Shown here one piece after another: positions 25,786 to 62,123 of a stretch of 64,000 nucleotides of DNA. Made by a program: the position numbers and the translations under genes. Below the pieces are notes generated by a model, which saw only the letters and a list, made by a program, of their open reading frames with translations, was not told the origin of the DNA and did no database searches. This DNA is from a virus (lineage: Duplodnaviria; Caudoviricetes): IMG/VR virus record IMGVR_UViG_3300010429_002123, one strand, 5' to 3'. Within the stretch, counting starts at the first letter, position 1; the number at the start of each line of letters is the position of its first letter.

Positions 25786-25862
25786 CTGAAAAGGATTTTC
25801 GTTATCACGAAAAGGAGTCTCGTTGCCACGAAAAGGATTTTCGTGATAACGAAAAGGAGGAG
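25786..25862 (+). promoter_or_regulatory. tandem 21-nt GGA-loop hairpin repeat ending in the SD
   Basis: CACGAAAA-GGA-TTTTCGTG-type units; last unit is AAAAGGAGG before the ATG at 25867. Confidence 0.75.
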
Positions 25863-25866
25863 AACT

Positions 25867-26388
25867 ATGTTTTCAGAACTTGAAGGGGCACTTTCAGAAC
25901 TTGAATTTTACTCGGAAGAAGGCAAAATAAAAGGCTCAGCTTTAAAGGCGGGGAGAATCAATGCCAATAATAGAATCTACCCGGAAGAAGTAGTAAGGGA
26001 GGCTGTTAACAAGGCCAGAGAAAAGGGGGGTATCCCTGTGGTCTTTGCTGATTCTTCAATTGAAATTCCCACACCCATATCTTCTTTCTGTGGGGTAGTC
26101 ACAGACCTATCCATAGACGAGGGGTCTAACCTTATATTCGAGGCGAGCATTTTAGACTCTCCAAAAGGTCACCTACTGGCTGAGTCTTTACGAAGTGGTA
26201 TGTCTTTCACTGCATCTGTAAGCGGTTATGGTAGGGTTGAAGACCTCGATGGCCTAGTTCTTGTATCCGAGGGGTATGAACTAGAAGCCGTGCACCTTAC
26301 TCCCACGCGAGGGACACAGGTGCGAAAGCTGACAGAATTAGAAAAGAAACTGCTGGAAGAAAAAGCCTGTTTGTTCTACAGCGAGTAA
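25867..26388 (+). CDS. prohead protease-like protein
   Basis: INANNRIYPEEV, ILDSPKGHLL, SVSGYG resemble T4 gp21-like maturation proteases. Confidence 0.6.
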   Translation: MFSELEGALSELEFYSEEGKIKGSALKAGRINANNRIYPEEVVREAVNKAREKGGIPVVFADSSIEIPTPISSFCGVVTDLSIDEGSNLIFEASILDSPKGHLLAESLRSGMSFTASVSGYGRVEDLDGLVLVSEGYELEAVHLTPTRGTQVRKLTELEKKLLEEKACLFYSE

Positions 26389-26393
26389 AAGGC

Positions 26394-26423
26394 TTGACAA
26401 TTTATACAACTTTATGATAGAAT
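26394..26423 (+). promoter_or_regulatory. sigma70/sigmaA-type promoter
   Basis: TTGACA-18-TAGAAT. Confidence 0.6.
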
Positions 26424-27387
26424 TTTAGAAAAAGAGAGGAGTTTAGCAATGACTTTATCTTTATGGGTGCTGTCCGTCTCTGGTCTGATTCTTTTCACTC
26501 TCGGTGTAACCGTGGGAAGTGTGGCCATGCTGGCTTATATTTTTGTACAGGTTGGCTTAAGGGATAAAAAACCCGCACCGAGAGTTACCCCCAGACCCAA
26601 AGTAGACAAAGACCTGGAGGAACTGTTATGACACTTAAAAGACATTTTCAGAAGTTTATTTATGAGCATTTAAAACAGCGAACAAAAACAGACGAGGAAA
26701 GAACCCAACTAAGGGTCGCTCTTCGTGTGTTAGACACGGCTTCTACAATAGCCTTAGGTGCTCAACTAAATAGATTTCTAACCGGAGATGAGAACCAGCA
26801 CAAAAAAGCAAAAGAAACGGGGATATAATCATATGGATAAACCATATTGGTGTCATGTCTGTGAAGAGACATTTTTACCGGAACATTCCACGGCACAAAA
26901 CAATGAAGAATTCTGCTCAGGGGCGTGTGAACTGGTAATATTTCAAATGAATGTAGTTAAACAGTGTGAGCATTGTTGGCAAGACTACTGCACTTGTTGT
27001 TCTAAGGCCGAAAAAGCATTTGTATACTGCAGTAAAGAATGTGAGGACAAAGATAACCCAAGAAGCGAGCGGGGATTACAAATACAGACTGACTCTGTTA
27101 TCAGAAGAAACGGAGAAAAAAGATGATTGCTCTGTGTGACTGGTTCAGCAACTCCACCTCTTGTGCGAGTCTAACAGGACTTAATACCACCTTTACTACG
27201 AATACTGTCCATAATCTAGGTGATAACACTGTACCAAGTTGTTTTTCTGCCCGTGCTCTGCAGGTAATGTATCCTTCATGTCACTTAGACTCCGGCGATT
27301 ACGGGCGAAATATGCGAAAAAATGAAAAACGAAAAGTTACCTTCGTAAAGAAGCTAAAAATAAAAGAAACTAAGGAGAGAACTAACT

Positions 27388-30300
27388 ATGCAAGTAAACG
27401 GATATTTCAGATTAAAGAAGGACCACCCCCTCGTCCCAGAATTCAAAAAAGACTGTGTCCTTCCAAACCCTGAGTATTTAAACAACTTAAAGATGGGAAT
27501 ATCTACAAAGGGTCTTTCCCCCACAGACTTACTCTACGAGCAGGAAGGAGACGAAATTCTCTTTCCCAGAGGAATGGCCAACCGGCTAAAAGGAACAGAA
27601 GACATCAGGGACTCCATGTCTTACGGTAAGGCCGTAAACTTCAAAGAAAGAATAACCCTTCGACCAGGTCAAAAATCTTTTTATGAAAAGTTTGTAAAGG
27701 GTGTTACTGACCTTTATGGTGCCAGTGCTCAGGCCGGGTGCGGACAAGGAAAATGTCAGACACTTTCTACTCCTGTCCTTACGCCAGAGGGGTTCAAAAC
27801 TCTTGGAAACATTCTTCCCGGTGACATGGTAATAGGCCGGGACGGAAAACCCACGAGGGTGTTGCAGACTTTCAGAAACGGAGAAAAAGACTGCTTCAGA
27901 GTAACCTTTAGTGACGGAAGTTTCGTAGACTGTGATGATGACCAGCTATTTCAGCTAAAGAATTCGGAAGCTCCTGTCACTCTTAAGAAAATACGGAACA
28001 GTCCCCCGGAAAAATTGGAAGTCCCTTTGTGTGAACCTGTAGACTTACCGGAAAAAGAGCAGGTGTTCTCTCCTTACTTACTTGGACTTTTGCTCTCAGG
28101 AGGGGCTTTTAAAGAGGGAAAACTCTATCTGTATGACAAGAATGAGCAAGCTAAAAACACGGCAAAAAGTGCCCTTTTAAAAACCCACAAATTAACAGGT
28201 CTTCCGCTGGGAAACAGCAGAACTTTGATATTTGAAAGATTAAAAAATGTTTCGGAGGAACTTGACAAACTCCTCCAAGATTCCCTGTCTTCGCCGGAGC
28301 AACTCAAGAGTGTAGGAGGCTCTTCTTCTAAAATACCTTACAATTACTTATTCGGGAGTAAAAGCCAGAGAAAAGCTCTTCTTCAGGGTGCTCTCGACAT
28401 GGGAGGAAGGGGAAAAGCAAATGTCTGGGACTTCAAAACACAGTCAAGAACCCTGGCAAGAGGGTTAACCTTTCTGGTAAGCTCTCTCGGTGGTACTTGC
28501 ACAAGTTTTTCCAGAGAAAAAACCTACCATCTCAGAATTGTCCTTCCTGAGGACTTCTCCTCCCCGGAAGGCTGCGGGGAAACTCCCCATAAAAAAATAA
28601 AAACAATAGAGCCCATAGGAAAGAAAGAAGTAGGATGTCTATTGGTAGACAATAAAGACCATCTTTATTTAGTAACTGAAACCTGTACAGTAATACACAA
28701 TACAGTGGTGTGTCTAAAAGTAATAGCGTCCCTGCAGAAAACAGCTCTGGTAATTGTGCATAAGACCTTTCTTGTAAACCAGTGGATAGAACGCATACAG
28801 GAATTCTATAATATAGAAGATAAAGACATAGGAATACTCTCAGGAGATGACATAGACTGGGCAGACAAAAAGATAAGTGTGGCCTTAGTACAAACACTCC
28901 TGGCTAAAGACCTCCCAAAAGAGTTCTATAACTACTATGGAACAATCTGTGTTGACGAGGAGCACAGGTTCGGGGCAGGAACCTTCAGAACAGTGATATG
29001 GAGATTTCCCGCAAGATACCGCCTGGGGGTCACGGCAACGCCCACCAGAAACGACTGTCAGGAAAAGGTATTCTTTACACACATAGGAAAAATAGTCTCT
29101 GTAATGTCTGACAGCAGAAAACAGCAGGTGGACGTCCACATGGTAAAAACAAATATTCCTCCCATTACTAACGAGAGACCCTTCTATGACTTCAGAAAAA
29201 AGATAAATCTCACTAAGGTTGTATCCTTCTTAATAGAATGCGAGTCTCGAAACCTTCAAATACTCAACTACCTCGTCAAGGCTGCGGAGAAAGGCCGAAA
29301 AATATTAGTATTAAGTGATAGAAGAGGACATCTGGAAACATTATCTTCTTTATTAAAAGCCTATTGTAAAGCAAATGAACACAAAAACATAAACATTTCT
29401 CAAGGGTATTACATGGGAGGAATGAAGCAGGAAGACTTAGACATTTCTACAACAAAAGACGTGATATTCGGCACTTTTGCAATGGCCTGTATAAGCGAAG
29501 AACAGGACTTTATTGACTACGTGACAGGGGAAACACAGAAATTTAAAAACCTTGTCGGAAAAAGCGTAAACTGCATTACCCATTCAGGAAAGATAACACA
29601 GTCGGGAAAAGTCATTTCTTCAGGTAAAAAAGAGTGCTTTAAACTGACACATTCCTTTGGGGACGTCTTAGCTACGGCAGACCACAAAGTCTTAACCGAA
29701 AAAGGCTGGGAAGAAGTCGCTAAGCTATCTTTACAGAGCCATCTGAGCCTCCCCAAAAAATTGGAAATAGAACAGGTCATAGACACTCCTATAAAAACCA
29801 GCGAACTCTGGCTATTAGGCTGTTTCATAGGTGACGGAAGCATGAGCCAGTATAAAAAAGGGGTCTTGTCGTTCATTTCCGCAGACGAAGACGTCCTAAG
29901 AAACGTGAAAAGCATTTTAGAAACACATAACATGACCCTTAAAAAAGTGCGAAAATACCGTTACAGAGTCTGTGGGGAGGGAAAAAACGGAAAGGGAGTA
30001 AAAACATGGTTAAGACATCAGATAGAAAACCTCGGACTCGGGGTCACGGCACGCAGTAAAGAAATCCCTCAGCCCTTTCTACTTCTCCCGGAACAGAAAA
30101 TAGGAAGTCTGCTCGCTGGACTGTTCGACACAGACGGGTGCGTAACTAAAAGAGGAGAGATACTTTTCTCTTCATCTTCTCAAAAATTAGTAACACAAAT
30201 TAAGTTTTTACTCTGGAGGCTGGGTATTTTTTCAACCCTCTACCCGTCGGCGGAGAATATGATGTTTGTCCTAAGCATCTCCCGGAATTTTAGCGAGCAG

Positions 30301-30915
30301 TTTTTAAAAACTGTCCCGTTAAAACTAAGAAGAAGAAAACAAAGAATAGAAGACTCTATGAGTAAAGGAAGAAGAGTCACAAAAAGCCCTACCAACTATA
30401 TCCCAACGTATTTTACAAAACTTCTTTTTTCTGAACTGAAAAGAAGAAAAATCCGAAAAACGGACATAGTGAGCCTGCTGAAAGAACAAAAAATGTCCTT
30501 TTCATGGGTTAACCACAACAAGGCAGCGGAAAAACAGAGCTTTAGCTTTCTTATTAACTTCTTTCAAATACCGGAGTTAGCAAAAGCCTTAGACTATATC
30601 TGGGCAAAAGTACAAAGCATTGAAAACATGGGGGAACAAAAAGTAGTAGATATGTCAGTGCCTGCTGATAACTCTTTTTTAGCGGGCGAAGCTCTCGTAC
30701 ATAACTGTGAGGGCTTAGATATACCCTCTATAGATACGGTAATCCTCGCCACACCTAAGGGAAGTGTCCAGCAGGCAGTCGGGAGAATAGTCCGGGAAAA
30801 AGCAGATAAAAAAGTATCTAAGGTAGTAGACATGATAGATGAGATAAGTATCTGTAAAGCCCTTTCTTTTAAGAGACTGAAGGAGTATAAAAAGCTAAAG
30901 TATGACATACACTAA
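27388..30915 (+). CDS. SF2 DNA helicase (XPB/UvsW-like) with two inteins
   Basis: LRPGQ, GCGQGK|intein|T, DEEH, GVTATPTRND, MA|intein|CEGLDIPSID, QQAVGRIVR. Confidence 0.92.
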   Translation: MQVNGYFRLKKDHPLVPEFKKDCVLPNPEYLNNLKMGISTKGLSPTDLLYEQEGDEILFPRGMANRLKGTEDIRDSMSYGKAVNFKERITLRPGQKSFYEKFVKGVTDLYGASAQAGCGQGKCQTLSTPVLTPEGFKTLGNILPGDMVIGRDGKPTRVLQTFRNGEKDCFRVTFSDGSFVDCDDDQLFQLKNSEAPVTLKKIRNSPPEKLEVPLCEPVDLPEKEQVFSPYLLGLLLSGGAFKEGKLYLYDKNEQAKNTAKSALLKTHKLTGLPLGNSRTLIFERLKNVSEELDKLLQDSLSSPEQLKSVGGSSSKIPYNYLFGSKSQRKALLQGALDMGGRGKANVWDFKTQSRTLARGLTFLVSSLGGTCTSFSREKTYHLRIVLPEDFSSPEGCGETPHKKIKTIEPIGKKEVGCLLVDNKDHLYLVTETCTVIHNTVVCLKVIASLQKTALVIVHKTFLVNQWIERIQEFYNIEDKDIGILSGDDIDWADKKISVALVQTLLAKDLPKEFYNYYGTICVDEEHRFGAGTFRTVIWRFPARYRLGVTATPTRNDCQEKVFFTHIGKIVSVMSDSRKQQVDVHMVKTNIPPITNERPFYDFRKKINLTKVVSFLIECESRNLQILNYLVKAAEKGRKILVLSDRRGHLETLSSLLKAYCKANEHKNINISQGYYMGGMKQEDLDISTTKDVIFGTFAMACISEEQDFIDYVTGETQKFKNLVGKSVNCITHSGKITQSGKVISSGKKECFKLTHSFGDVLATADHKVLTEKGWEEVAKLSLQSHLSLPKKLEIEQVIDTPIKTSELWLLGCFIGDGSMSQYKKGVLSFISADEDVLRNVKSILETHNMTLKKVRKYRYRVCGEGKNGKGVKTWLRHQIENLGLGVTARSKEIPQPFLLLPEQKIGSLLAGLFDTDGCVTKRGEILFSSSSQKLVTQIKFLLWRLGIFSTLYPSAENMMFVLSISRNFSEQFLKTVPLKLRRRKQRIEDSMSKGRRVTKSPTNYIPTYFTKLLFSELKRRKIRKTDIVSLLKEQKMSFSWVNHNKAAEKQSFSFLINFFQIPELAKALDYIWAKVQSIENMGEQKVVDMSVPADNSFLAGEALVHNCEGLDIPSIDTVILATPKGSVQQAVGRIVREKADKKVSKVVDMIDEISICKALSFKRLKEYKKLKYDIH
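27754..28701 (+). mobile_element. intein 1 in helicase Walker A (316 aa)
   Basis: CQTLSTPVLTPEG...LQGALDMGG...TVIHN followed by Thr. Confidence 0.88.
29488..30705 (+). mobile_element. intein 2 in helicase (406 aa, LAGLIDADG)
   Basis: CISEEQ...ATADHKV...LLGCFIGDG...LAGLFDTDG...LVHN followed by Cys. Confidence 0.92.
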
Positions 30916-30966
30916 TCCTGAGGAAACAATCTTGACATGCCACATTAAATATGCTACTATATAAAT

Positions 30967-31045
30967 ACGTTCTCTTCTTCGTTCAGGACAGGGGTAACGA
31001 GTAGAGTTCTTTCACTAAAAACGACCTTTCTCCGAGGTCGTTTTT
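30967..31045 (+). ncRNA. candidate ~80-nt small RNA
   Basis: TTGACA-17-TACTAT at 30932-30960, internal hairpin, terminator AAAAACGACCT/AGGTCGTTTTT, no ORF. Confidence 0.5.
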
Positions 31046-31059
31046 GCATTTTCTCCCAT

Positions 31060-31111
31060 AAAAAGAAGGGAAAAAGAAGGGAAAAAGAAGGGAAAAAGAA
31101 GGGAAAAAGAA
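31060..31111 (+). repeat. 11-bp tandem repeat (AAAAAGAAGGG x4-5)
   Basis: Read directly from the sequence. Confidence 0.85.
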
Positions 31112-31136
31112 AGTTAAATAATTTTTACAAAAAGTA

Positions 31137-31165
31137 TTGACAACTATCTTCACCCGTGCTATAAT
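31137..31165 (+). promoter_or_regulatory. sigma70/sigmaA-type promoter with shared UP motif
   Basis: TTTTTACAAAAAGTA-TTGACA-17-TATAAT. Confidence 0.88.
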
Positions 31166-31258
31166 AATTTTAGTGAAAGAACCAAACAGACGAAAATGCT
31201 ACCACGAAAAAGATTTTCGTTACCACGAACTGTTATCGCAAAAAGGAGGAAAAATAAC

Positions 31259-31579
31259 ATGAAAATGAATATAGACCCAAGAACGAAAGAAAAACTTATG
31301 GAGGAATATTCCTCCATGTCCATAGTAAACATAGAGGGTGAGACTGGAAGCCTCACCTACTCCGTGTCTAATTATAACTCCTGGAATGGAGACAGGTTTA
31401 ATACCTACAGGATAAAGAAAAATCAGGAAGGCCATATCACCTGTGACTGCCCTCACTACGAAAAACGGCTCAGTGTAAGGAATCAGGGCAAAGAAGCAGA
31501 CAGTGCCTATGTTTGTAAGCACGGCGGATATGTCATTATGAGAATGACAGAGATAATAAGAAAAAAGGGAAAAAATTAA
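31259..31579 (+). CDS. SWIM zinc-finger protein
   Basis: TCDCPHY...CKH; ATG at 31259 after AAGGAGG. Confidence 0.7.
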   Translation: MKMNIDPRTKEKLMEEYSSMSIVNIEGETGSLTYSVSNYNSWNGDRFNTYRIKKNQEGHITCDCPHYEKRLSVRNQGKEADSAYVCKHGGYVIMRMTEIIRKKGKN

Positions 31580-32501: not shown

Positions 32502-32852
32502 ATGACCCAGAGAGACCTCGAGAGCCTAACAGAGCACATAACAACCTGTGAAGAAAGGATAGAAGAAATAAGAGATGAAATAGAAGGGCTACAAAAAGAA
32601 ATTGAACGTGAGTTCAAAAAGGGAACCAGATTTGTCCTCAAGAGTAGCCCGGATGACGTGTGCATAATGGAAAGAATTCGTTACAATGTACACACCAACG
32701 CTTTCATAATGGACTTCAGAAAGGAGGGCTCGGAAAAACTGTTGGGTGATAATTACGGTCAGTTAAACAGAATTACAATTTTAGACAACCAGGATTTGAC
32801 CTGTCTGGATACCCGCCCTGCTGAGGCCAGCCCGGGACACGAACAAGAATAA
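32502..32852 (+). CDS. hypothetical protein
   Basis: 116-aa ORF with N-terminal coiled coil. Confidence 0.55.
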   Translation: MTQRDLESLTEHITTCEERIEEIRDEIEGLQKEIEREFKKGTRFVLKSSPDDVCIMERIRYNVHTNAFIMDFRKEGSEKLLGDNYGQLNRITILDNQDLTCLDTRPAEASPGHEQE

Positions 32853-32876
32853 TTCCACAAAGGAGAGAATGATTAC

Positions 32877-34269: not shown

Positions 34270-34464
34270 ATGAAAGAAATGAAGTTAAAAATCACCCGGA
34301 AGGGTGAAGTAAAGATTGAAGGGATAAAAGGCACGGTAGGTGCCGAGTGCCTTGAACTAACTAAAAAACTGGAACAGGCTATAGGTCAGACAGAGAGCAG
34401 GGAGCTCACTGAAGATTACTACAAAGAAAAGGAGAACGAGTATGAATACAACAAAAACGCTTGA
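34270..34464 (+). CDS. DUF2997-like small protein
   Basis: KITRKGEVKIEG..G.EC.ELTKKLEQAIG...TEDYY; usual partner of Ycf46-like AAA genes; promoter at 34183-34211. Confidence 0.7.
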   Translation: MKEMKLKITRKGEVKIEGIKGTVGAECLELTKKLEQAIGQTESRELTEDYYKEKENEYEYNKNA

Positions 34465-35467
34465 GGAATTAGACCTGCTCATAAGAGCCAGATACCCTTT
34501 GATAAACATTATTTCTCCAGAAACGGCAAGGGTTACTTCTGCTCTGGAGACCATTCTTAAAGACCACGAAGACAAGAAGATGTTTTCATGGGTATTCGGA
34601 GAAGGTATGACCTGCCTGGGAGAAAGAAAAAACCTGACTGTAGACGAAAAAGGGATGCTGGGTAAAGAGCTTGACCCGCTGTTAGTTCTGGATAAAATAG
34701 AAATCTTTGGAAAAAACTCTCTGTTTATTCTAAACGACTTTCACTTGTTCCTGAAAGACACAAGGGTTCTAATCAAATTAAAATCAGTGACTTCCCGGAT
34801 TAGAATGAAAAGGTCTACTTTAGTATTTATTTCTCCCTGTTCTTTCCCGGTTCCTCCCGAACTGAGAGACCATATAACAACTATCTCTTTCCCTCTTCCC
34901 GGAAGTGACGAAATGGAAGGTCTTTACCAAAATACGTTAAGCAGGGTGTGTATTCCGGGACAAAAACTCGATAACATCAGCGACACACTGAAAGAAAAGA
35001 TAGTCAACTCTGCTCTTGGCCTGACTTTTAACCAGGCAGAAAGGGTGCTGTTTAAAGCTCTGACAAAAAACGGAAAGATTTCTGAAGAGGCCATAGACCG
35101 AATATTAGAGGAGAAAAAGCAGTTAATTTCCCTCTCTTCAGCCCTGCAGTTCTTTCCTGCTACGGAGACAATAAAGAACGTAGGAGGTTTATACTCTCTC
35201 AAAGAATGGGTGAGAAGCAGAGAAAAAGTCTTCTCTAAAGAGGCAAGAGAGTATGGTCTGCCCGTTCCTAAGGGTGTGCTTCTCGCAGGAATACCAGGCA
35301 CAGGAAAAAGCCTTGTGGCCAAAGCCGTAGCGGGTATGTGGAAAATGCCTCTTCTAAGACTCGACGTGGGGGCAATTTTCGGCGGACTTGTCGGCCAGTC
35401 TGAAGAAAATGTCAGGACTGCTATAGCTATAAGTGAGGCGGTAGCTCCGTGTTGTTTGTGGGTGGAT
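34442..35467 (+). CDS. Ycf46/SpoVK-like AAA+ ATPase, exon 1
   Basis: LIRARYPLI, VGGLYSLKEW, PKGVLLAGIPGTGKSL, GQSEENVR, APCCLWVD. Confidence 0.9.
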
Positions 35468-36577: not shown

Positions 36578-37147
36578 GAAATAGAAAAAGGACTCTTTGG
36601 GGCGAGTGCCCGTCTCTCCGTCGGTGACAGCGGAGTAAGTGCCCGAGTAGCTTCTACTATGCTTACGTGGATGCAGGAAAAAACCTCTCCCGTATTTGTA
36701 GTAGCCACGGCTAATGACCTTACAGGGTTCAGCCCGGAGGAAATTCGCATGGGAAGATTTGATGCTGTGTTCTTCCTTGACTTCCCCGACGAAATAGAAA
36801 GAATGGAAATCTTTAAAGTCCATCTCGAAAAGAGAAGACCTGTCATTCATAAGTACGACCTGAAACTTCTGGCTAAACTCACAGAAGGTTTCACAGGAGC
36901 TGAAATAGAACAGGTTATCATAGAAAGTATGCACAACGCCTTTTATGATACGGGCAGAGACTTCACTATGGGTGACATCGAAAAAGTCATAAAGGAAACA
37001 GTTCCCTCCTCTGAAATGATGAGAGATAAAATAGACAAGTTAAGAGAATGGGTCAAGTCAAACAGAGTAAGGACTGCTTCTGCAAGGGAACCGGAAAAAG
37101 TCATGCCCAGTTATATAAAACTTGAACCTTTAAACTTAAGGAACTGA
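36578..37147 (+). CDS. Ycf46/SpoVK-like AAA+ ATPase, exon 2
   Basis: EIEKG, LTWMQEKTSPVFVVATAN, GRFDAVFFLDFP, GFTGAEIEQ. Confidence 0.9.
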   Translation, partial: EIEKGLFGASARLSVGDSGVSARVASTMLTWMQEKTSPVFVVATANDLTGFSPEEIRMGRFDAVFFLDFPDEIERMEIFKVHLEKRRPVIHKYDLKLLAKLTEGFTGAEIEQVIIESMHNAFYDTGRDFTMGDIEKVIKETVPSSEMMRDKIDKLREWVKSNRVRTASAREPEKVMPSYIKLEPLNLRN

Positions 37148-48255: not shown

Positions 48256-48642
48256 TTATACCTCCTCTCTTTCCGGGGGGATTGGCCATATCTTTGGAAT
48301 ACCACCCCCACAGGAAAATGCAGAATCTTCAGTGGGTTCTGCTAACCCTTTTTTATTACGCCCAAGATACTCTTTTCTAAACTTAATAAAATAAATATTA
48401 GAGGCTTGCTTACCTCCCACCCTACGATGTCTTGTCAGAAGGTATCCCTTCTCTTCCAGAGACTTAAGGATTTTTAAAAGGGTTGTCTTTGACATTTTGA
48501 ACATTTCTGCGTAAGATTTCAAGTTTGGGGGTTTGCAGACACCCTTTTCATTATAAGAAAAAAGAGAGGTCATCACACCCACCTCCTCAAGGGTTAAACC
48601 CCCCTCTGCTAAGCTATTAGGTACGTAAAAAACATCTTTCAT
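48256..48642 (-). CDS. winged-HTH (HTH_36-like) replication-initiator-like protein
   Basis: FYVPNSL...MSKTTLLKILKSLEEKGYL...QASNIY; paralogue of 48659..49219. Confidence 0.6.
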   Translation of the reverse strand: MKDVFYVPNSLAEGGLTLEEVGVMTSLFSYNEKGVCKPPNLKSYAEMFKMSKTTLLKILKSLEEKGYLLTRHRRVGGKQASNIYFIKFRKEYLGRNKKGLAEPTEDSAFSCGGGIPKIWPIPPEREEV

Positions 48643-48658
48643 GCGTATGTTCCTCCTT

Positions 48659-49219
48659 CTAAAATTCATTTTCGTTTTCTATTACGATTTCTTCGGCAGT
48701 CTTTGGGAGGTCAAATCTGTTTTTTATTATAGAAATAGTATAGGCTATTTTATCCCGTATGCCTCTCCGTTTGTTACGAGGGTCGCCGAGGGTTATCTTA
48801 AAAGCCTGTTCAAGCACTTCCTGGGGGGAAGTTTCCGGGTATAACTTTTTGTATTTAACGGCTGTATTATATAAGGTTCGAAACTCGCTTTCCTTCAAAT
48901 GTTTCTGAAGAAACTCTGAGGGGGTTGGGTATATGGTGCTTTCCCAGTCCAGTATCGTATACTTATTAGAAGTTTGTCTCCCTCTTACCCATCTTTTCTC
49001 TGCTTGAATGTATCCTTTCTTTTCGAGGGAATGTAAAATTGCTCTTAGCTTGCGTTCACTTATGAACAACTCTTCGCTGAGAGTTTCTATTTTTGGCCAG
49101 CAGTATTTTTTGTTTCTGGAGTAAGTATAGAGAGACAACATTACCAAGATTTCAAAAGGGAGCAGGTCTTTCTTTCTATTTTTGCTCAGACTATTAGGCA
49201 CGATGGTAAAATCTTTCAA
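48659..49219 (-). CDS. winged-HTH (HTH_36-like) replication-initiator-like protein
   Basis: FTIVPNSL...CWPKIETLSEEL.ISERK...LEKKGYI...TSNKY; TTG start after GAGGTGA. Confidence 0.7.
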   Translation of the reverse strand: MKDFTIVPNSLSKNRKKDLLPFEILVMLSLYTYSRNKKYCWPKIETLSEELFISERKLRAILHSLEKKGYIQAEKRWVRGRQTSNKYTILDWESTIYPTPSEFLQKHLKESEFRTLYNTAVKYKKLYPETSPQEVLEQAFKITLGDPRNKRRGIRDKIAYTISIIKNRFDLPKTAEEIVIENENEF

Positions 49220-49453: not shown

Positions 49454-49811
49454 TATAGACTGCATATCGTGCAGTCTATAAAAACCCGTAAGTAGCGGGG
49501 CTAACCTTGCTTTTTTCTCCCCCATTTTCAAAAATAGACTGCACGCCGTGCAGTCTATAAGAATGGCGGTATATATAGGTTTTCCTTCTTTTTAGGGCTT
49601 TTTTAGCCTATTATAGACTGCATATCGTGCAGTCTATAATGCCATTATAGACTGCATATCGTGCAGTCTATATGTCAAAATAGACTGCATATCGTGCAGT
49701 CTATAAAAAGTAAAAAGTAAAAAATGTTTTGTAAAAATTAGTAAAGAGAAACCGTTACGGTGTAAGGAGAAGAACTCTCTTTTTATAAAAATATAGACTG
49801 CACGCTGTGCA
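49454..49811. repeat. palindromic iteron-like repeats TATAGACTGCA-N5-TGCAGTCTATA (5 full, 1 partial); candidate replication origin
   Basis: Copies at 49454, 49534, 49612, 49646, 49680, 49792 in an ORF-free AT-rich interval. Confidence 0.85.
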
Positions 49812-50030
49812 CCCTAAGGATAATTAAAAAGAATAAATGAAAAAGATTCTAAAAAGAAGCAATGATAATTGAATAAAACATTGATTCAAGAATAAGAACA
49901 CATTGTGAGAGGGGGGAAAATTTTTTTCGGGAACCCGATACCCACCCCGTGCCCCCGCATAAGGGTAGGGGAGCAACTCGCGTCAAATGCTGGAGGTGCT
50001 GACAAAGTTAACTTATTTTTACAAAAAGTA

Positions 50031-50377: not shown

Positions 50378-50845
50378 ATGAGATACTTCGCAAAGTTTGA
50401 ACTCGGAACAGAGAACGTCCTTTCTGAAATGGGAGGACAATTTGAAATAGTGGCAGAAACCGCCACGTGTGTTGTGTTCGACCTTGAAAACGAAATGTCA
50501 GGTCTGCAGGAACAGAATCTTAACGCAAAAGCTGGAGTTCTGGAATACGGGCAGAACCCGGACGAGATTACTCTTTACTTCAACCTTGATGAAAAGGCTG
50601 AGGAACCATCAGAAGTAACAGGGAGTGAGGACTTCTCAAGTGAAGACCTGATAGAAAGAGGTGTGTGGTCTCAAGAAGACAGGGCTTATAAAGTTCTGTT
50701 CACCCGTGAGCCTGACTTTTTCTGTGAGTGCGGAGGATTTTCCTATGGTTGGGGCGCCTCAATGTGTCCGGTGTGCTTTTCAAAAAATCTTCTCCGTGAC
50801 TCCAGGATAAAGAACTTCTGGTTTGAAGGGCTACAAAATATATAG
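50378..50845 (+). CDS. hypothetical protein with C-terminal Zn ribbon
   Basis: CECGG...CPVC; SD AAGGGGG. Confidence 0.55.
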   Translation: MRYFAKFELGTENVLSEMGGQFEIVAETATCVVFDLENEMSGLQEQNLNAKAGVLEYGQNPDEITLYFNLDEKAEEPSEVTGSEDFSSEDLIERGVWSQEDRAYKVLFTREPDFFCECGGFSYGWGASMCPVCFSKNLLRDSRIKNFWFEGLQNI

Positions 50846-50864
50846 CCATTTTTTACAAAAAGTA

Positions 50865-50894
50865 TTGACAACTGCTACCCACACGTGGTATAAT
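50865..50894 (+). promoter_or_regulatory. promoter with shared UP motif, followed by GGA hairpins (50910-50966)
   Basis: TTGACA-18-TATAAT. Confidence 0.85.
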
Positions 50895-50973
50895 ATAAAA
50901 AGTGAAAGAAACAAAAAGGATTTTTGTTGACACAAAAAGGATTTTTGTTGACACAAAAAGGAGGAGAACGTAT

Positions 50974-52113
50974 ATGGAGGAGACATTCACAGCTACAACG
51001 GAGAAGGGTGAGGAGGAACTCACCCGGCAATTAGGAGAGGCCAAAGAGCCTCGATACACCCCCAGAAATATATTCGAATTCCAAGAGGGAGAAAAAATAG
51101 CAGGTATGAACTCCCTTATGGAACTGGCAAAAAATTACACAACCGATTGCAAAGACATTACTATCCCGGCAGATTCACTCCGGGTTATGACGACAGAGGA
51201 TAACAAACTTCTCATAACAGACACTTTCCCAGAAGAAGAAACTCAGGTTATGTCCAGCCTGAGTAGATGGTCTTTAGACCAGCTCTGTAACCGCTACGGA
51301 ATTCCGGTAAGATACATGAGAAAATGTATGCTGGCAAAAAGACTTGACCTATTAAAAGGAAACATAAATGGCTGGCTATCGAGGGATACAAAACCAGTAT
51401 TTCTCCGTTCCTACAGAGACAGAGTAAGAGGGTTTCTTTCCTCGAAATTCGTCCCGTTCGACAGTATAGACGTTCTGAACTGCCTGCAGGAATTACCCCA
51501 AATTCCTTACCAGAGGTTTTCTGTGCAGGCCAGCTATCTTGATGAAGAAAGAATAAACCTTCGTCTGGTAGATGTGGTTCCTCTGAACCTGGAAAACGAC
51601 AAATTATATGTAGGGCTGAACATAAGAGACAGTGACGTGGGAAAGTCAAGTTTTGAGGCGGGTATCTATATTTTCAGACTGGTGTGTCAGAATGGCCTTA
51701 TGACTAAAAACAGTGAGGGTTACTGCTGGACACGAAAACACGTGGGGCTAAGTCGGGAAATGTTCTTTGAAAACCTCGGCAGAATAGTAACTAATATGAA
51801 TCAGGTAAGGCATATAATAGAATATCACTACAAAAACCTTCAAAAACCAATAACCAAAATCGAGATGTCTGACCTGATTACCGGAGCTATACAAAAGCTG
51901 GAACTCGCTGAAGAAAAAGCCTTCGAGATAGAAACCTTAACAGAAGAGAAATACACTGTAAGTACATACGGATTTATAAATGCTCTTACAGAGATAGCTC
52001 AGACCTACGCTATCGAAAAAAGAGAAAGGATAGAGACTTACGCCGGGACATTCTTGCCGATGTCTGCCCCGGAAAAACCAGAGGAGGAACTTGTGTATGA
52101 AATGGTAAGCTAA
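50974..52113 (+). CDS. DUF932-like protein
   Basis: QLCNRYGIP..Y, RGFLSSKF, DSDVGKSS, FRLVCQNGL, RKH. Confidence 0.7.
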   Translation: MEETFTATTEKGEEELTRQLGEAKEPRYTPRNIFEFQEGEKIAGMNSLMELAKNYTTDCKDITIPADSLRVMTTEDNKLLITDTFPEEETQVMSSLSRWSLDQLCNRYGIPVRYMRKCMLAKRLDLLKGNINGWLSRDTKPVFLRSYRDRVRGFLSSKFVPFDSIDVLNCLQELPQIPYQRFSVQASYLDEERINLRLVDVVPLNLENDKLYVGLNIRDSDVGKSSFEAGIYIFRLVCQNGLMTKNSEGYCWTRKHVGLSREMFFENLGRIVTNMNQVRHIIEYHYKNLQKPITKIEMSDLITGAIQKLELAEEKAFEIETLTEEKYTVSTYGFINALTEIAQTYAIEKRERIETYAGTFLPMSAPEKPEEELVYEMVS

Positions 52114-55606: not shown

Positions 55607-55630
55607 AATGTCACCTAAGATTTTATTTAA

Positions 55631-55700
55631 GAGGATTTTTGTTACCACAAAAAGGATTTTTGTTACCACAAAAAGGATTTTTGTTACCACAAAAAGGAGG
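55631..55700 (+). promoter_or_regulatory. tandem GGA-loop hairpins ending in the SD
   Basis: ACAAAAA-GGA-TTTTTGT units; ATG at 55708. Confidence 0.78.
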
Positions 55701-57415
55701 AAGTAAAATGGCTCATGTAGAATTTTTAAACAGACAAAACCGGGCAGAGGTTTTAACCCCCCAGTCAGACACGGAAAAGGCGAAATGTCTTTTCTGCAGA
55801 GATAACTTTTCTCTTGTCAGAGAAATAATTACAGGTTTTTTCGGCATAGAAGAAACCCCAACTGTCTCTTCCCGAAAGGGGCAAAGGTCAGAGATTCTGA
55901 CGGAAGAATAGAGGTGTAAAGATGGGATGTAGAAACGTGCACAGGCAAAAAAACTATAAGGGTTCAAGCACAAATCTTAGCCCTGACCCGGACAAAGGCC
56001 GGAAGGTTCTGCACTTGATAAACAATCAGATGTTTTCTAACGTAGGGTTTAGAGAAGTTCGCACAGGAAACCTCGAAGACAAACCCTATGACTGGAGATT
56101 AATATACTGCTATGACGAACAGAATATAAGTTCAAAAGTGTTCTTCTCTGAGATGGAGAAACTACTCGAACAGGTACATAGGGCAGAGTGCCCCTTAATC
56201 TATATAGCGGTCTGTCATAAGGTTAACTGGCACTTATTTGAAGTGCAAGAGTATGAGTATGAAAAAGAAAAACAGATAATTCTTCATTGCAGGCTCTGGA
56301 GTTAAAATCATGTTTGAAATAGGAAAAACCTACAAACACCTTTTTACAGGCGAGCTTCTCCTGGTTATAGGAATAGGTATGCCTGACTTAACTGACCCGG
56401 CAAAAAATAAGTATTTTGGAAGAACGGGAGAAGGAGAAATAAAAAAACTCACAGGGGGTAACTACTTACAATGGGAGTATTTTCCCGAGATTGAGGGAGT
56501 TCCTCAGCACACTGTAGACACCTACGGTACCTATGGAAAAAGAGAGGGCTCCCTTTTGGGTTCTGATATTGAGCGAATATGTACGGAAGTTTTAATAATA
56601 GATGTGTCACTGAGTGTGAACTAGAGAAACTGAGAGGTGTGTTATTGTGCTTTTCTGGACAAAAACTGTATATTTGTCCTCTTCCCCGGAAGACAGGCTG
56701 ACCCTAAGGGAAGTAGAGGGTGAGTGTTTTCGTATGGAGCCCTGTTCTCCCGGAGAGGGAGCAGATGCTCAAATTACCCGTGCTCTGGGACACATACCAA
56801 GAGAAAAAAAGCGTCTGAGAAAGCGGAAAAGAAACGACAAGAAAAAAGCGAAGTATATCTTACTTTTCTCAGAAACAAAAGGGGAATTTGAACCCTTTAC
56901 CCTGCTAAGAAAAAAATCAGACGTCGCTTTTAACTTAAAGCCCCATATTCTCCAGCTCTTAGGAGACCCCACAGGTTCTTACGTTTTCCTTTCTTTAAAC
57001 GAGGCTGAAAACTTTGTCTCCTCTATCATATGTCCCCACGGTTGGGTGAACTGTGGAACCTGCAGGAACATAAAACCTGATGAGTATAAAGTAACCCCTG
57101 AGTTCGTGGCGAGAGCGAGGGGAGCGAAGAAACTCCAGAGACAAATCCGAAGTTTACCGGAAATAACTGAAGTTCCGGTGAAAAAGAGGTGAATATAACC
57201 TGTTTCCATTTCTTCTGTCCCTTTTATTCCAACAGGTCATTACCCACACCGAAGTCAATAAGTTTCTTTATTGCAGGATTTTAAATAACCCTGAAGAAAG
57301 CTACTAAAAAGAGTTAGACGCTTGATGATAAAAAGTGAAACCGTAAAATAGTAAGACAGCAAACTAATAAGACAGTAAAATAGTAAAATAGTAAAAAAGA
57401 AAGAGAGGAACATAA

Positions 57416-58570: not shown

Positions 58571-58661
58571 AGTCCGGCACTTCGAATGATTTAGTATTGA
58601 AAGCCACTTCAGAATGTGGTATACTAAAAAATAGACTTTTTGTCTGGAAAGTGAGTTAGAA

Positions 58662-59336
58662 ATGGCTATATTTCACAAAATTGTAGGCAAGGGCTCAAAC
58701 AGAAAAGCCCTTGATGTTTACGCTACTCCTCCAGAAGCTATAATAGGTCTTCTGGAGAAAGAAGTTTTCGAGGGAAACATCCTTGACCCTGCCGTGGGTG
58801 AAGGGAACATTCTTATAACTTTAAAATGGTGGTTTGAGAAAAACAAAGGGTATACCCCCCTTTGCTACGGTTATGACCTGAGAGAAGATGACTCTATCTA
58901 TGGAAAAAAAGGTGTAGACTTCTTATCCTCAGACTCAAAATACCCACAGATTATGAACATAATAGCAAACCCTCCGTTCTGCGTGGCAACAGAGTTTATC
59001 TTGAAAGCAAAAAGTTTGGCTACCCACAAAGTTGCTATTCTTTTAAAGCTCGACGCTATGACCGGAGGAGACCGTTACGACCGTGTCTGGTCAGATACTG
59101 CTTTCCCTTTAAAAAAGGTAATCTGTTTTTCTAAAAGACTGGACTTCGAAAAAAAGGGAGCTCCTACAATGGAGCATATGTGGCTCATCTTTGACAAGAG
59201 TCACAGGGGGGAACCGACAGTCACGTGGTTTGATAACAGAGTTGTAGATACTGAGGGTATTCCTCTGGTAGAAAGAGTCATAAAAAACACCGAAATACCT
59301 TCTGATAAAGAGGTGGACGTCCCGGATGGTCAGTGA
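58662..59336 (+). CDS. DNA amino-methyltransferase
   Basis: DVYATP, ILDPAVGEG, IIANPPF. Confidence 0.85.
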   Translation: MAIFHKIVGKGSNRKALDVYATPPEAIIGLLEKEVFEGNILDPAVGEGNILITLKWWFEKNKGYTPLCYGYDLREDDSIYGKKGVDFLSSDSKYPQIMNIIANPPFCVATEFILKAKSLATHKVAILLKLDAMTGGDRYDRVWSDTAFPLKKVICFSKRLDFEKKGAPTMEHMWLIFDKSHRGEPTVTWFDNRVVDTEGIPLVERVIKNTEIPSDKEVDVPDGQ

Positions 59337-59940
59337 AAACAAATTTAGCATAGTCCTTGCTGACCCTCCGTGGCTGTATAATGACACGAAGGGTAATTTA
59401 CCTTCTTGCGGGGGAAAGACTTATCCGGTGATGACTCTTGAGGACATTCAAAAAATTCCCGTAGCAGAACTTTGCGATAAAAAAAGTTGTGCTTTGTTTC
59501 TGTGGGCAACTTCCCCGAAACTCCCCGAAGCCCTCAGTGTTATGAGTGCATGGGGATTTAAGTTTGTTACCACGGTGTTTGTATGGGTGAAGACTAACCC
59601 GACAAATCCGAAAATTTATTCTGGCCTGGGTCACTATACTAACCAGAACGCCGAGTTTGTTCTCCTCGGAAAAAAAGGCCGACTCTTTCGCAAAGAAAGA
59701 AACGTAAAACAAATAGTTATAGCACCCAGAGGGAAACACTCAGCAAAACCTCCCGAAGTAAAAGAAAGAATAGTAAGACTTCTGGGAGACATTCCTCGCA
59801 TAGAGCTTTTTGCCCGCGAAAAGATAAAAGACGGGTGGTCTTACTGGGGAAATGAAGTCCCTTGCGACATACCAGAAAACTGGGTGGACTGGAAATCCTT
59901 TACTATAGAGGAAAGAGAAGGTGCTACTGTTGGCTACTAA
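59326..59940 (+). CDS. MT-A70 family adenine methyltransferase
   Basis: LADPPW.Y, LFLWAT, WGFKF, N.EFVLLG, HSAKP, IELFAR, WGNE. Confidence 0.92.
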   Translation: MVSENKFSIVLADPPWLYNDTKGNLPSCGGKTYPVMTLEDIQKIPVAELCDKKSCALFLWATSPKLPEALSVMSAWGFKFVTTVFVWVKTNPTNPKIYSGLGHYTNQNAEFVLLGKKGRLFRKERNVKQIVIAPRGKHSAKPPEVKERIVRLLGDIPRIELFAREKIKDGWSYWGNEVPCDIPENWVDWKSFTIEEREGATVGY

Positions 59941-60409
59941 TTACCAGCGGGGAAGAACCCGCGAATATTATGTAATGCAGAACTTAAGAAAAAAGGGTTA
60001 CCATTGTATTCGTTCTGCAAGCAGTAAGGGTTACTTTGATGTCATAGCTATAGGAGAGAAGGACATTCTTCTTATCCAAGTAAAACTCTCCAAAGACGGT
60101 AAGTTAAAAAGAGACGAAAATTATAAACTGTCCCTCACACTTAAAGTTCCAACAAATACCAAAAAACAATTATGGCTTTTTGCCCCTGGAAGTACAACCC
60201 CAGAAATTCTTGAGTTATCAGGTATTTCAACACTTCCAGAAGTTCTTGAACCTCAGAGTGATAGACCGCCTGACGTTTCGAGTAATTTAAAACGGAAGGA
60301 ACAAAAAGATGGAGGAAATACTATTCAGAGTGAACAAAAACACGGACGAGAAAAAACTGTCGGGGGCGATAGTAAAAACTCTGGAGGAAGGAAAGCGAAT
60401 AAGAATTAA
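59921..60409 (+). CDS. Hjc-like Holliday junction resolvase
   Basis: RG...E....L..KGY..IRSASSKG.FDVIA.....LIQVK. Confidence 0.8.
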   Translation: MLLLATNYQRGRTREYYVMQNLRKKGYHCIRSASSKGYFDVIAIGEKDILLIQVKLSKDGKLKRDENYKLSLTLKVPTNTKKQLWLFAPGSTTPEILELSGISTLPEVLEPQSDRPPDVSSNLKRKEQKDGGNTIQSEQKHGREKTVGGDSKNSGGRKANKN

Positions 60410-60569
60410 CAGTATAGGTTCAAAATGCAACTATATTGTGACTAAGAGTTTGATTATTGCCAGAAGTCTCCTCGCCGGAAACGCCAGGGATATAAAAATC
60501 ATTCCCGGGTTCGAGAAAAAAGAACAGGAAGACGTGCTTGTCATCGTCTATGTTGTGACTTTGCTTTAA
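60309..60569 (+). CDS. spoVS: SpoVS-family protein
   Basis: ILFRV....D...LSGAI......I.SIG......TKSLIIARSLLA....I..IPGF aligns with SpoVS. Confidence 0.7.
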   Translation: MEEILFRVNKNTDEKKLSGAIVKTLEEGKRIRINSIGSKCNYIVTKSLIIARSLLAGNARDIKIIPGFEKKEQEDVLVIVYVVTLL

Positions 60570-60629
60570 ATACTGCTGAGAGCTTGAAGGCTCAAAAACT
60601 TAAAAACCTAAAAATGGGAGGTAAGTTCC

Positions 60630-61181
60630 ATGACTGCTAAATTACTACTATTTCTACTGCTGACTCTGAGCCTGCTTTTGTTTGCTCAGAGTCATTTTAT
60701 TGTTGCTGAAGAAGTAGCTGATTCTCTTATCCCCGCTAAGTGTGTGAAGGTTCTTGACGGGGATACTGCGGAGATTTCCTTTCGAGGGTTTCCTGTAAGA
60801 ATAAGACTGGCTAACATTGACGCCCCGGAGAAAAAACAAAAGTTTGGAAAAGAGTCTCTGGCTTTCTTACAGAACCTTCTTCTCGGAAAAGAGGTATGGG
60901 TAAACCCTAATGGAAGTTCTCTTGACAAATATAATAGAACTATTTGCGAGCTCTTCATAGAAAAAGAAGGGAGCTTACTCTGTGTAAACACAGAGATGGT
61001 AAAAAAAGGCTACGCTATGGTGTACAATAAATACTGTAATAAACAGGTATTTGAAATCTTAAAAGGTCTGGAGGAAACTGCCCGGCTGGAAAAGAAAGGG
61101 CTGTGGCAGGAAACAAACCCACAAACTCCGTGGGACTTCCGGGCTGAAGAAGCCAAAAAAACCGAAAAGGAGAAAAAATAA
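60630..61181 (+). CDS. thermonuclease (SNase) with signal peptide
   Basis: VLDGDT, IRLANIDAPE, DKYNRT, EMVKKGYA, KKGLW...PWDFR; hydrophobic N-terminus. Confidence 0.92.
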   Translation: MTAKLLLFLLLTLSLLLFAQSHFIVAEEVADSLIPAKCVKVLDGDTAEISFRGFPVRIRLANIDAPEKKQKFGKESLAFLQNLLLGKEVWVNPNGSSLDKYNRTICELFIEKEGSLLCVNTEMVKKGYAMVYNKYCNKQVFEILKGLEETARLEKKGLWQETNPQTPWDFRAEEAKKTEKEKK

Positions 61182-61187
61182 GAAAGT

Positions 61188-62069
61188 ATGACTTTTAGAG
61201 TTGGAAAAATTTCTGGAATAGATGACGCAATAGTGTCCCTTCTCATGAGCAAAAGAACCCATACGGAAGCAAAAGAGAAGGGGATACGGGAGTTGGTAAG
61301 TGTCTTTACAAATAAAGATGGATTTTATTCAGAGGAATGTAAATTCTGTGGTATCACTGACTATAAAGAAAAAAAGCAAGAGTTTTTTGACTGGTTGTAT
61401 AAGTTGAGACATTACGGGTTGGAACTTGGTCATGAGACTCTCCTCAGATTCATAGACATCACAGTAATTGTGAAAGGCTTACACAGAGGTGCGGGTGATG
61501 ATTTAGACGCACACTCCTGTAGAATGAACAATAGAATAGTAAGGTCTTCAACAAGACTGTCTAAAAAGTATGCGAAAAAGGTGGAAAGAAGTGACTGGTA
61601 TGAAGGAAAAATTCTAACCTTTGAAGAAATAATAGACAAAGTGTCTGTTGGTTCAGACGTTGACCTGAGCTTTAAGGACAAAGTAACCCTTATTAACGGG
61701 GAAGAATGGGTGAAAACACCTTACGGCTACGTTAAAAAAGGGTACGAAGAAGATAATGATGTGCTTCGAGGACTCTATCCTCTGTCTGTCCCGTGGGACT
61801 GTATATTCAAGTGTAACTATGTTGACCTCCGGCACATTTACAGGGTAAGAGGTGAGCACTCTTCGGCTAACCCGGAGTTACGTTCGGGAGCAGAACAGAT
61901 GGCTGGAGATTTAAAAGAAAAACTTCCCGTGTTGGGAGAAGTCATAGACAAGGAGTTTGTTCTTACTGGTTACGCAGGAGACACCCCGGATTACGGGTGG
62001 GTAAAGGTCTCTGAAGTGAAAAAAGTGAGCCTGGACTATTTCGAAGAGCGAAAAGGCTTTTCGGCATAG
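61188..62069 (+). CDS. divergent ThyX-like flavoprotein
   Basis: GHETLLRF, HR...D.H, SSTR, LRHIYRVR...ANPE resemble ThyX motifs. Confidence 0.5.
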   Translation: MTFRVGKISGIDDAIVSLLMSKRTHTEAKEKGIRELVSVFTNKDGFYSEECKFCGITDYKEKKQEFFDWLYKLRHYGLELGHETLLRFIDITVIVKGLHRGAGDDLDAHSCRMNNRIVRSSTRLSKKYAKKVERSDWYEGKILTFEEIIDKVSVGSDVDLSFKDKVTLINGEEWVKTPYGYVKKGYEEDNDVLRGLYPLSVPWDCIFKCNYVDLRHIYRVRGEHSSANPELRSGAEQMAGDLKEKLPVLGEVIDKEFVLTGYAGDTPDYGWVKVSEVKKVSLDYFEERKGFSA

Positions 62070-62123
62070 CAAGAAGGATTTTTGTTACCGCAAAATACCA
62101 ACGCAAAAAGGGGGAGACGTTCA

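Follow-up and report, generated by a model that had tools for sequence, protein, structure and literature searches.

What could be the role of short tandem hairpins that repeat in front of a gene and merge with its ribosome-binding site (RBS)? This question is raised by a 64,000-nt stretch of DNA (hereafter the window) from a virus of the Caudoviricetes (IMG/VR record IMGVR_UViG_3300010429_002123), in which eight genes are preceded by arrays of 21-nt units, most of them predicted to display GGA in the loop of a small hairpin. An earlier reading of the same DNA, hereafter the original prediction, took the arrays for a translational regulon of the CsrA/RsmA type. According to the analysis reported here, the arrays probably tune translation through a reader, and the best reading, to which we subscribe tentatively, is that of a multivalent platform on the mRNA, on which a factor that reads GGA would compete with the ribosome. 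We infer that the units would act as RNA, that their reader would be a protein rather than the ribosome and that the effect would be repression.

Tandem GGA units in register with the Shine-Dalgarno sequence

The window holds 22 full 21-nt units, spread over eight loci. They occur exclusively on the + strand, at most 150 nt 5′ of a start codon, the remainder of the window being free of them, and their orientation corresponds to the mRNA sense of the + strand genes, the few − strand genes being devoid of units. Each unit is composed of a 7-nt A-rich arm, the trinucleotide GGA, a T-rich arm of 7 nt that is complementary to the first, and a linker of 4 nt, which is mostly TACC or TATC and otherwise TGAC, GATA, TAAA, TACT, TGCC or CATA (eight forms). 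The most conserved element across the loci is GGA, which is present in 20 of the 22 units, the exceptions being AGA and GGC, both in the decayed arrays at 31201 and 62049; the invariant core reads AAAGGAUUU. Every array is followed by a half-unit consisting of arm and GGA, which runs on as GGAGG and thereby places the Shine-Dalgarno (SD) sequence on the next lattice point of the array. This half-unit reads AAAAGGAGG at six of the eight loci, AAAGGAAAA at 41737 and AAAAGGGGGAG at 62106, and the distance from GGAGG (or an equivalent purine run) to the ATG is 6–9 nt. At six loci the GGA of the SD lies one exact 21-nt period past the last full unit; at the decayed arrays (31201 and 62049) the distance is 34 nt, with a truncated unit of 13–14 nt intervening. 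A conserved asymmetric box that contains the SD (ACRAAAAGGAGG or GCAAAAAGGAGG) is found at six of the eight loci, always in mRNA sense. The AAAGGA core of the units is identical to the first six bases of the consensus SD of this phage, AAAGGAGG, and every upstream unit continues as GGAU, never as GGAG, save one broken unit. Thus, the original prediction was right in describing one to six GGA-loop units at eight loci, a last unit that forms the RBS, covarying stem types, and AGA and GGC loop variants at two loci.

Full units number three at 25786, one at 31201 (plus two remnants), six at 38780, three at 39597, two at 41691, two at 50910, three at 55631 and two at 62049 (plus one remnant). Numbered 1 to 8 in this order, the arrays and the genes behind them are as follows:

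25786..25860, + strand: array 1, three units ACGAAAA/TTTTCGT, the middle one with a broken 3′ arm, and the SD half-unit ACGAAAAGGAGG; inside the 3′ end of the open reading frame (ORF) 25497-25883 and 5′ of a prohead-protease-like gene (25867-26388)
31190..31249, + strand: array 2 (decayed), an intact AGA-loop unit (31204-31224) flanked by two truncated units, then GCAAAAAGGAGG; downstream gene 31259-31579, 106 aa, with a weak SWIM-like match
38781..38918, + strand: array 3, six units ACAAAAA or GCAAAAA/TTTTTG and the SD half-unit; downstream the uridine kinase gene 38926-39537
39598..39672, + strand: array 4, three units and the SD half-unit, two units being ACGAAAA/TTTTCGT and one a junction ACGAAAA/TTTTTGT with a G.U pair; downstream gene 39682-39885, encoding a Cys-rich protein of 67 aa
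41691..41742, + strand: array 5, two units ATGGAAA/TTTCTAT, the real SD being merely AAAGGA; downstream a gene of 285 aa with its main start at 41751
50911..50964, + strand: array 6, two perfect units and the SD half-unit; downstream the DUF932-like gene 50974-52113
55626..55700, + strand: array 7, three units, the first with a degenerate 5′ arm, and the SD half-unit; between an exonuclease-like gene (end 55606) and a 67-aa gene (55708-55911)
62048..62116, + strand: array 8 (decayed), a GGC-loop unit, a unit with two G.U pairs and a truncated unit, then GCAAAAAGGGGGAG; the GGC-loop unit overlaps the last codons and the stop of a ThyX-like gene, and an 88-aa gene (62124-62390) lies downstream

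The 22 units resolve into 12–16 distinct rows: units within an array are near-identical and arrays differ from each other, yet the last unit of array 3 is identical to the last unit of array 4, and units as well as RBS tails are common to several loci. Tandem Repeats Finder reported a period of 21 at six of the eight loci and did not report the decayed arrays at 31201 and 62049. When one mismatch at most was allowed, AAAAGGATTTT was matched 31 times as compared to 6.9 expected, a number reached by none of 100 shuffles. Among perfect + strand hairpins with a stem of at least 6 bp and a 3-nt loop, GGA is the loop in 21 cases, a tally in which nested 6- and 7-bp calls are both counted, and the next commonest loop occurs four times. 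On the + strand, a weight matrix derived from the units recovered the 22 units; its − strand matches were 10 mirror images of these palindromic units and two unrelated weak ones (3320 and 10428). Over the entire 64 kb no further match exceeded the threshold, and 20 shuffles gave 0–2 matches each. Clustered regularly interspaced short palindromic repeats (CRISPR), tRNAs and known RNA families were ruled out by scans as the identity of the arrays.

Several arrays are coupled to a recurrent promoter. A near-identical sigma-70-like promoter is present in seven copies in the window (1226, 4788, 31125, 41644, 42633, 50019 and 50853), five of which are perfect; it consists of TTACAAAAAGTATTGAC and then TATAAT, and the conserved leader start AGTGAAAGAA follows the promoter. 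Arrays are borne by three copies, all perfect (31125, 41644 and 50853), and start 0–30 nt from the predicted 5′ end of the transcript, which is placed at about 31172, 41691 and 50901, respectively:

31125..31181, + strand: promoter and leader start AGTGAAAGAA, 5′ of array 2
41644..41690, + strand: promoter cassette 5′ of array 5, which starts approximately at the predicted transcript start
50853..50910, + strand: promoter cassette with the AGTGAAAGAA leader start, directly 5′ of array 6

The perfect copies at 42633 and 50019 as well as the copy at 4788 carry no array, and the leader at 50019 resembles an unexpanded form of the array leader. No recognisable promoter precedes the arrays at 25786, 55631 and 62049, two of which overlap the end of the upstream ORF, and the arrays at 38780 and 39597 sit 3′ of a different repeated hairpin motif.

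Pairing, strand sense and predicted folds

The arms fall into three types, namely ACAAAAA (type i), ACGAAAA (type ii) and ATGGAAA (type iii), which differ at one to three of the seven positions and are each accompanied by a complementary partner. When the 16 distinct units are paired with GGA in the loop (register A), 92% of the 112 cells are paired and three of the seven pairs are changed on both sides. Shuffles gave 87.3% paired cells, none of 500 reaching the observed value, and slid controls gave 38–63%. In 14 of the 16 distinct units this register yields a GGA triloop on an A.U-rich stem of 6–7 bp, with energies of −1.5 to −3.3 kcal/mol. Since the arms are compensated rather than conserved, the action is placed on the transcript and not with a single DNA-binding protein; at the sequence level, RNA hairpins are thereby a better description of the units than half-sites for a protein on DNA. 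The cells that depart from Watson-Crick pairing comprise eight G.U, one A.C and eight others (two-sided binomial test of G.U versus A.C, p = 0.039). Because this ratio would flip on the opposite strand, the excess of G.U over A.C favours the sense strand, but the bias is a weak pointer to RNA action, several of the cells being located at array edges.

Single hairpins are marginally stable (−1.5 to −3.8 kcal/mol), and the SD is unpaired in every predicted fold. Therefore, the arrays alone would not mask the RBS, and any repression would need a trans-acting factor. Masking of the SD and a thermometer of the fourU type are ruled out by the same observation.

Relatives of the arrays and of the phage were sought in several collections. 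Among viral contigs, a strict two-unit pattern had no match; a looser three-copy pattern hit 83 loci, and the best 40 of its 127 matches, ranked by hairpin potential, hold no SD-preceding GGA-loop array. A three-copy pattern found 53 loci in metagenome contigs and a two-copy pattern 27 loci in genome contigs; the former are all unrelated 21-nt tandem repeats and the latter are all unrelated as well. A blastn comparison of 8 kb of the window with 50,697 phage records gave no match, and in a tblastn search the N-terminus of the DNA polymerase PolA reached 30% identity at best. A search for related loci returned a single 40% match in a giant-virus bin for the uridine kinase (Udk), nothing for the DUF932-like protein and one 30% fragment for PolA, and a protein search with the DUF932-like gene retrieved only its own cluster and one homologue of 29% identity. 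The phage is without relative in any collection searched, and the covariation is thus confined to one genome.

Candidate readers of the arrays

In the mechanism that we tentatively favour, the repeats would belong to the leader of the mRNA and exert their effect when translation is initiated. Each unit would form a marginally stable, A.U-rich hairpin that displays GGA, with AAA before and UUU after it. A trans-acting GGA reader would bind along the array cooperatively, and at the last copy, which lies on the SD, it would compete with the 30S subunit in the manner of CsrA/RsmA dimers. Candidates for this reader are the CsrA protein of the host, a CsrA-like protein of the phage or another phage RNA-binding protein. 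Units would be added or removed by slippage, 21 nt at a time, and their number may set the hold on the gene; equally, it may determine how much of the factor is soaked up by abundant phage leaders. In its extended form, which we consider rather unlikely, the arrays would represent an expandable translational rheostat, in which SD-phased GGA hairpins serve a GGA-reading regulator both as graded operators and as a sponge resembling CsrB, and 21-nt slippage speeds evolution gene by gene.

The nearest mechanism known is Csr/Rsm control. CsrA binds GGA in the loops of weak hairpins, bridges sites that are 10–63 nt apart with an optimum above 18 nt, and has one site on the SD, as outlined in PMC7652899. 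Leaders such as those of glgC, cstA and Bacillus subtilis hag carry several GGA motifs in weak-hairpin loops within this range, the last one on the SD, and the sponge RNAs CsrB and RsmZ share the many-hairpin layout with the phage arrays (PMC7652899). Here, the sites are 21 nt apart, in keeping with the spacing rule, and the final GGA is the GGA of the SD at all eight loci. Unlike Csr systems, however, the phage arrays are perfect tandem copies with a fixed period of 21 nt, have 6–7 A.U-rich pairs and a 3-nt loop, lack ACA and GU flanks adjacent to GGA, stand at eight phage genes and are not accompanied by csrA in the window.

The nearest phage phenomenon described is that of the start-associated sequences (SAS) and extended start-associated sequences (ESAS) of Cluster K mycobacteriophages. 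In these phages an SD-containing box stands 3–7 bp before many non-structural genes in one orientation, and inverted repeats directly precede about half of the sites; their function is not established (PMC3203893). The phage arrays likewise feature an SD-containing asymmetric box, a likeness of kind only as the sequences are unrelated. The mycobacteriophage box is single, 13 bp long, GC-rich and not tandem, and the host phylum differs. Moreover, the authors of that study state that departures from the ESAS repeats gave no support for RNA pairing (PMC3203893), whereas departures within the arrays are compensatory or G.U. Our literature search, which covered few subscription journals, retrieved no description of tandem GGA hairpins in register with the SD.

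Several observations speak against a platform for a GGA-reading protein, in particular one of the CsrA kind. The flanks of the consensus RUACARGGAUGU, which was obtained by iterative selection of ligands (SELEX), namely ACA immediately before R-GGA and GU on its 3′ side, do not adjoin GGA, A-GGA-U alone being matched; in type i units ACA and GU stand 3–4 A.U pairs outward, and they are missing from types ii and iii. None of the 91 predicted proteins of the window matched the CsrA family (PF02599) at E ≤ 1e-3, and a re-scan of 15 small or unassigned proteins at E ≤ 5, with spurious antisense ORFs outside the scan, was negative too. Hence, csrA, for which the original prediction had suggested to look, was not found in the window. 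Pfam and PHROGs revealed no other recognisable RNA-binding regulator among the window proteins, and an Rfam scan of the whole window at the gathering threshold detected no Csr/Rsm RNA, its sole match being a group I intron. As AAAGGA is the 5′ part of the phage's own SD, the 30S subunit is an equally obvious reader, and the units of array 5 are complete modules of SD plus ATG, which a protein platform does not predict. The fold itself is ambiguous: pairing of a 3′ arm across the linker with the next 5′ arm (register B) leaves 90.5% of cells paired with three doubly changed pairs, and thus fits equally well, is slightly more stable and places GGA in 3-nt junctions instead of loops. In the junction units, the 3′ arm pairs perfectly with the downstream arm and by means of G.U with the upstream arm. 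In the computed fold of lowest energy, the array forms a long nested rod interrupted by GGA/GGA internal loops (−8.5 to −27 kcal/mol). Furthermore, the covariation derives from about three independent arm types in one genome, the remainder being thermodynamic prediction, and the decay of three arrays implies that selection on individual units is not strong.

Taken together, these comparisons partly support the CsrA-like reading as a reasonable working model on the basis of sequence: the 21-nt spacing and the last site on the SD agree with the regulon claimed by the original prediction, as do the GGA loops if register A applies, while the SELEX flanks are displaced or missing and csrA was not found in the window. 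If the units are indeed read on the mRNA, they would constitute a compact, modular and tunable element of translation control, with a 21-nt unit and copy number as the dial, serving early and metabolic genes that are unrelated in function. Post-transcriptional control of the Csr type, or one analogous to it, would then extend to large lytic phages, and the arrays could serve as a model by which to understand start-associated repeats in other phages. Should the rheostat apply, a phage would for the first time be seen to carry a Csr-type regulon spanning several genes, and the copy number of tandem repeats would for the first time be found to set translational control in nature.

Foremost among the alternatives is a role as auxiliary SD pads, which we regard as possible but doubtful. 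That is, the 30S subunit would dock on truncated copies of the RBS (AAAGGA) in breathing hairpins, which would act as a standby or landing pad or as a shield from 5′-to-3′ decay, and no dedicated protein would be involved. The identity of the AAAGGA core with the start of the consensus SD fits this scenario, and so does the computed pairing with a Bacillus-type 3′ tail motif of 16S rRNA, which may not be that of the host: types i and ii reach −6.0 kcal/mol and type iii −10.0 kcal/mol, as compared to −10.2 to −12.2 kcal/mol for the real SDs and −1.5 to −3.8 kcal/mol for self-folding of the units. The upstream copies of array 5 are at least as strong as its real SD, and an in-frame ATG follows 11 nt past each copy. 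The position of the three promoter-proximal arrays within 0–30 nt of the predicted 5′ end also agrees with it. There is precedent in the stabilizing SD (STAB-SD) of Gram-positive bacteria and their phages, SD-like sites in the 5′ untranslated region that are not used for initiation, could hold the 30S subunit and block RNase J1 through its binding (PMC4113751). This known element is single, full-strength and free of hairpins, whereas the arrays consist of 1–6 partial copies, each paired with its own complement. Moreover, the known stabiliser needs one SD-like copy only, and the upstream units read GGAU and not GGAG, the broken unit excepted. A polypurine 5′ stabiliser is likewise known from phage, and we know of no natural tandem standby array. 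Most importantly, selection retains the complementary 3′ arm, which sequesters AAA and constrains GGA and thereby works against docking of the 30S subunit. Since this arm is kept and hides part of the SD-like tract, we prefer a protein reader to a ribosome pad.

A further alternative, to which we assign a low probability, is that the arrays are products of non-adaptive expansion with little or no regulatory role. An RBS-adjacent hairpin in a shared promoter-leader cassette would slip during replication in steps of 21 nt and be spread by recombination between cassettes, GGA being retained through repeated copying from the selected SD-proximal unit. Such a history would be in line with the near-identity of units within arrays that differ between loci (12–16 distinct rows for 22 units), with the range of copy numbers from 1 to 6, with three decayed arrays containing truncated units, and with units and RBS tails shared by loci, as illustrated by the last units of arrays 3 and 4. 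It also agrees with the fact that only three of the seven promoter copies (five perfect) are followed by an array and that the leader at 50019 looks unexpanded. The PeSL (promoter early stem-loop) cassettes of T4-type phages offer a parallel, according to PMC2839356: a strong sigma-70-like promoter is repeated together with hairpins across non-essential regions of a large lytic phage, and the repeated cassette is a likely substrate for recombination. The stem-loops of PeSL are terminators 5′ of the promoter, whereas the arrays stand 3′ of it and are tandem, weak and merged with the SD. In the window, terminator-like hairpins do precede the promoter copies 31125 and 50853, but the hairpin arrays themselves are not terminators and three of the eight have no promoter. 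Mere slippage is also difficult to reconcile with arms that changed in a compensatory manner two to three times and with G.U cells outnumbering A.C cells 8:1, both of which point to selection for pairing of the sense strand, or with the 7-3-7-4 geometry, which is retained even in the divergent type iii unit. In addition, no unit in the window lies outside the SD register, and palindromic RBS stutter is absent among the listed 21-nt scan matches from the three collections (for the viral one, the best 40 of 127).

Binding of a phage repressor to double-stranded DNA appears very unlikely. In this scenario, cooperative binding of a repressor to the 17-bp palindromes along a single helix face would block initiation, or elongation ahead of the gene, in the style of met boxes, Arc-type arrays or the stoperators of mycobacteriophages. 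The exact period of 21 bp, corresponding to two turns, and the perfect palindromes are as expected for such sites, and at three loci the array occupies positions from +1 to +30 of a strong promoter. Helix-turn-helix and ribbon-helix-helix/Arc-like proteins are encoded in the window (4999, 5144, 8549, and on the − strand 44326, 48256 and 48659), and the authors of the SAS/ESAS study favoured DNA binding for their inverted repeats (PMC3203893). However, operator arrays present the same half-site at all sites, whereas three arm types with matching changes in the partner are found here; the half-site varies between loci with compensation and the asymmetric GGA centre is constant in mRNA sense. Likewise, G.U is tolerated and A.C is not. 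Moreover, three arrays are without recognisable promoter, two overlap the end of upstream coding sequence, and a DNA roadblock does not need a lattice locked to the SD.

Targets or decoys of a GGA-specific endoribonuclease, similar to T4 RegB, which inactivates early mRNAs by cuts inside the SD, are extremely improbable: RegB together with S1 recognizes a single-stranded 11-mer with an invariant GGA at its start, followed by G or sometimes U and then an A-rich tract (PMC1702504), which resembles the real SDs here (GGAGG and an A-rich spacer), but the window contains no match to the RegB family, its polymerase is of family A, unlike the T4 type, and the upstream units with GGAU and a U-rich paired tract belong to the class that is resistant in T4 (PMC1702504). 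Antitermination hairpins of the nut/boxB type and RNase III sites were set aside by reasoning, as they have no need of the SD phase and the helices are short and interrupted.

Genomic setting and neighbouring elements

The arrays also affect gene annotation. By direct reading, the common unit is open in all three frames, and the mechanically called ORF begins inside or 5′ of the array at seven of the eight loci, which bears out the false N-terminal extensions announced by the original prediction. Even if the arrays were mere slippage products, this would concern the N-termini of seven of the eight genes and the length of two upstream ORFs. The possibility that the arrays code for heptad repeats was ruled out, given that the frame from array to ATG varies among loci and that a strong SD and an ATG follow each array; array 5 stays ambiguous in this regard. 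It contains one ATG per unit (41712 and 41733), both sharing the reading frame of the main start at 41751. Each of these internal ATGs has AAAGGA at usable spacing, which makes N-terminally extended products in 7-aa steps possible. The 128-aa ORF 25497-25883 crosses array 1, and the units encode its last ~30 residues as a series of charged heptad repeats; gain or loss of units would alter this C-terminal tail. As to the gene labels given earlier, Udk is firm (PF00485, 1.7e-27) and the others are weaker: the DUF932-like (8.6e-5) and prohead-protease-like (9.2e-5) assignments are below the Pfam cut-offs, although PHROGs backs both, and the SWIM label of gene 31259 has E = 0.023 only.

The phage, which is uncultivated, has a genome of ~234 kb, as judged from the cluster to which the DUF932-like protein belongs (two contigs, the longest 233,925 bp), and the 64-kb window covers a replication and nucleotide-metabolism region of this large phage according to Pfam. 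The region encodes dUTPase, thymidylate kinase, uridine kinase, uracil-DNA glycosylase, a ThyX-like protein, deoxynucleoside kinase and two DNA methyltransferases, as well as an intein-bearing RecA-like protein, a SNF2-type helicase with an intein and a fragmented family A polymerase that is accompanied by an HNH gene and inteins. The share of sampled words was 0.99 in one DNA run, which is probably the source, 0.54 in one metatranscriptome run and 0.08 in one further run; the value of 0.54 was not used as evidence.

In the regions 9393-12050, 18999-24927 and 27388-30912, the RecA-like protein and the SNF2-type helicase contain inteins with LAGLIDADG domains, and the family A DNA polymerase is split over the ORFs 18999, 21380 and 22456, between which lie an HNH endonuclease gene (20908) and remnants of inteins. 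The group I intron (RF00028; 36266-36541, + strand, 90.2 bits, E = 9e-22) splits an AAA+ ATPase gene into the AAA domain (34442-35467) and the AAA lid (36659-37144).

Other repeats are found close to the arrays and the promoters. The second repeated hairpin, AAATACATAAG-TTG-CTTATGTATTT and then TTTGARAGAA (38660-38775, 39520-39590 and 39979-39997), is present in two to three copies 5′ of arrays 3 and 4, with a single copy ahead of gene 40061, and may represent a promoter of a second class or a signal for RNA processing. Between 38528 and 38925 there are ~400 nt without coding sequence, in part rich in pyrimidines. Perfect tandem copies of the 11-nt sequence AAAAAGAAGGG, 4.7 in number, occupy 31060-31111 between a terminator-like hairpin (31016-31046) and the promoter at 31125. 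Another terminator-like hairpin, located at 50827-50853 and ending in a PeSL-like composite with the promoter, has a T-run and overlaps the promoter start. Finally, 2.9 copies of a 33-nt palindromic unit (92% matches) lie at 49610-49706, adjoining two divergently transcribed genes for DnaD/replication-initiator-like proteins (48256-49216, − strand), and form a candidate origin or operator.

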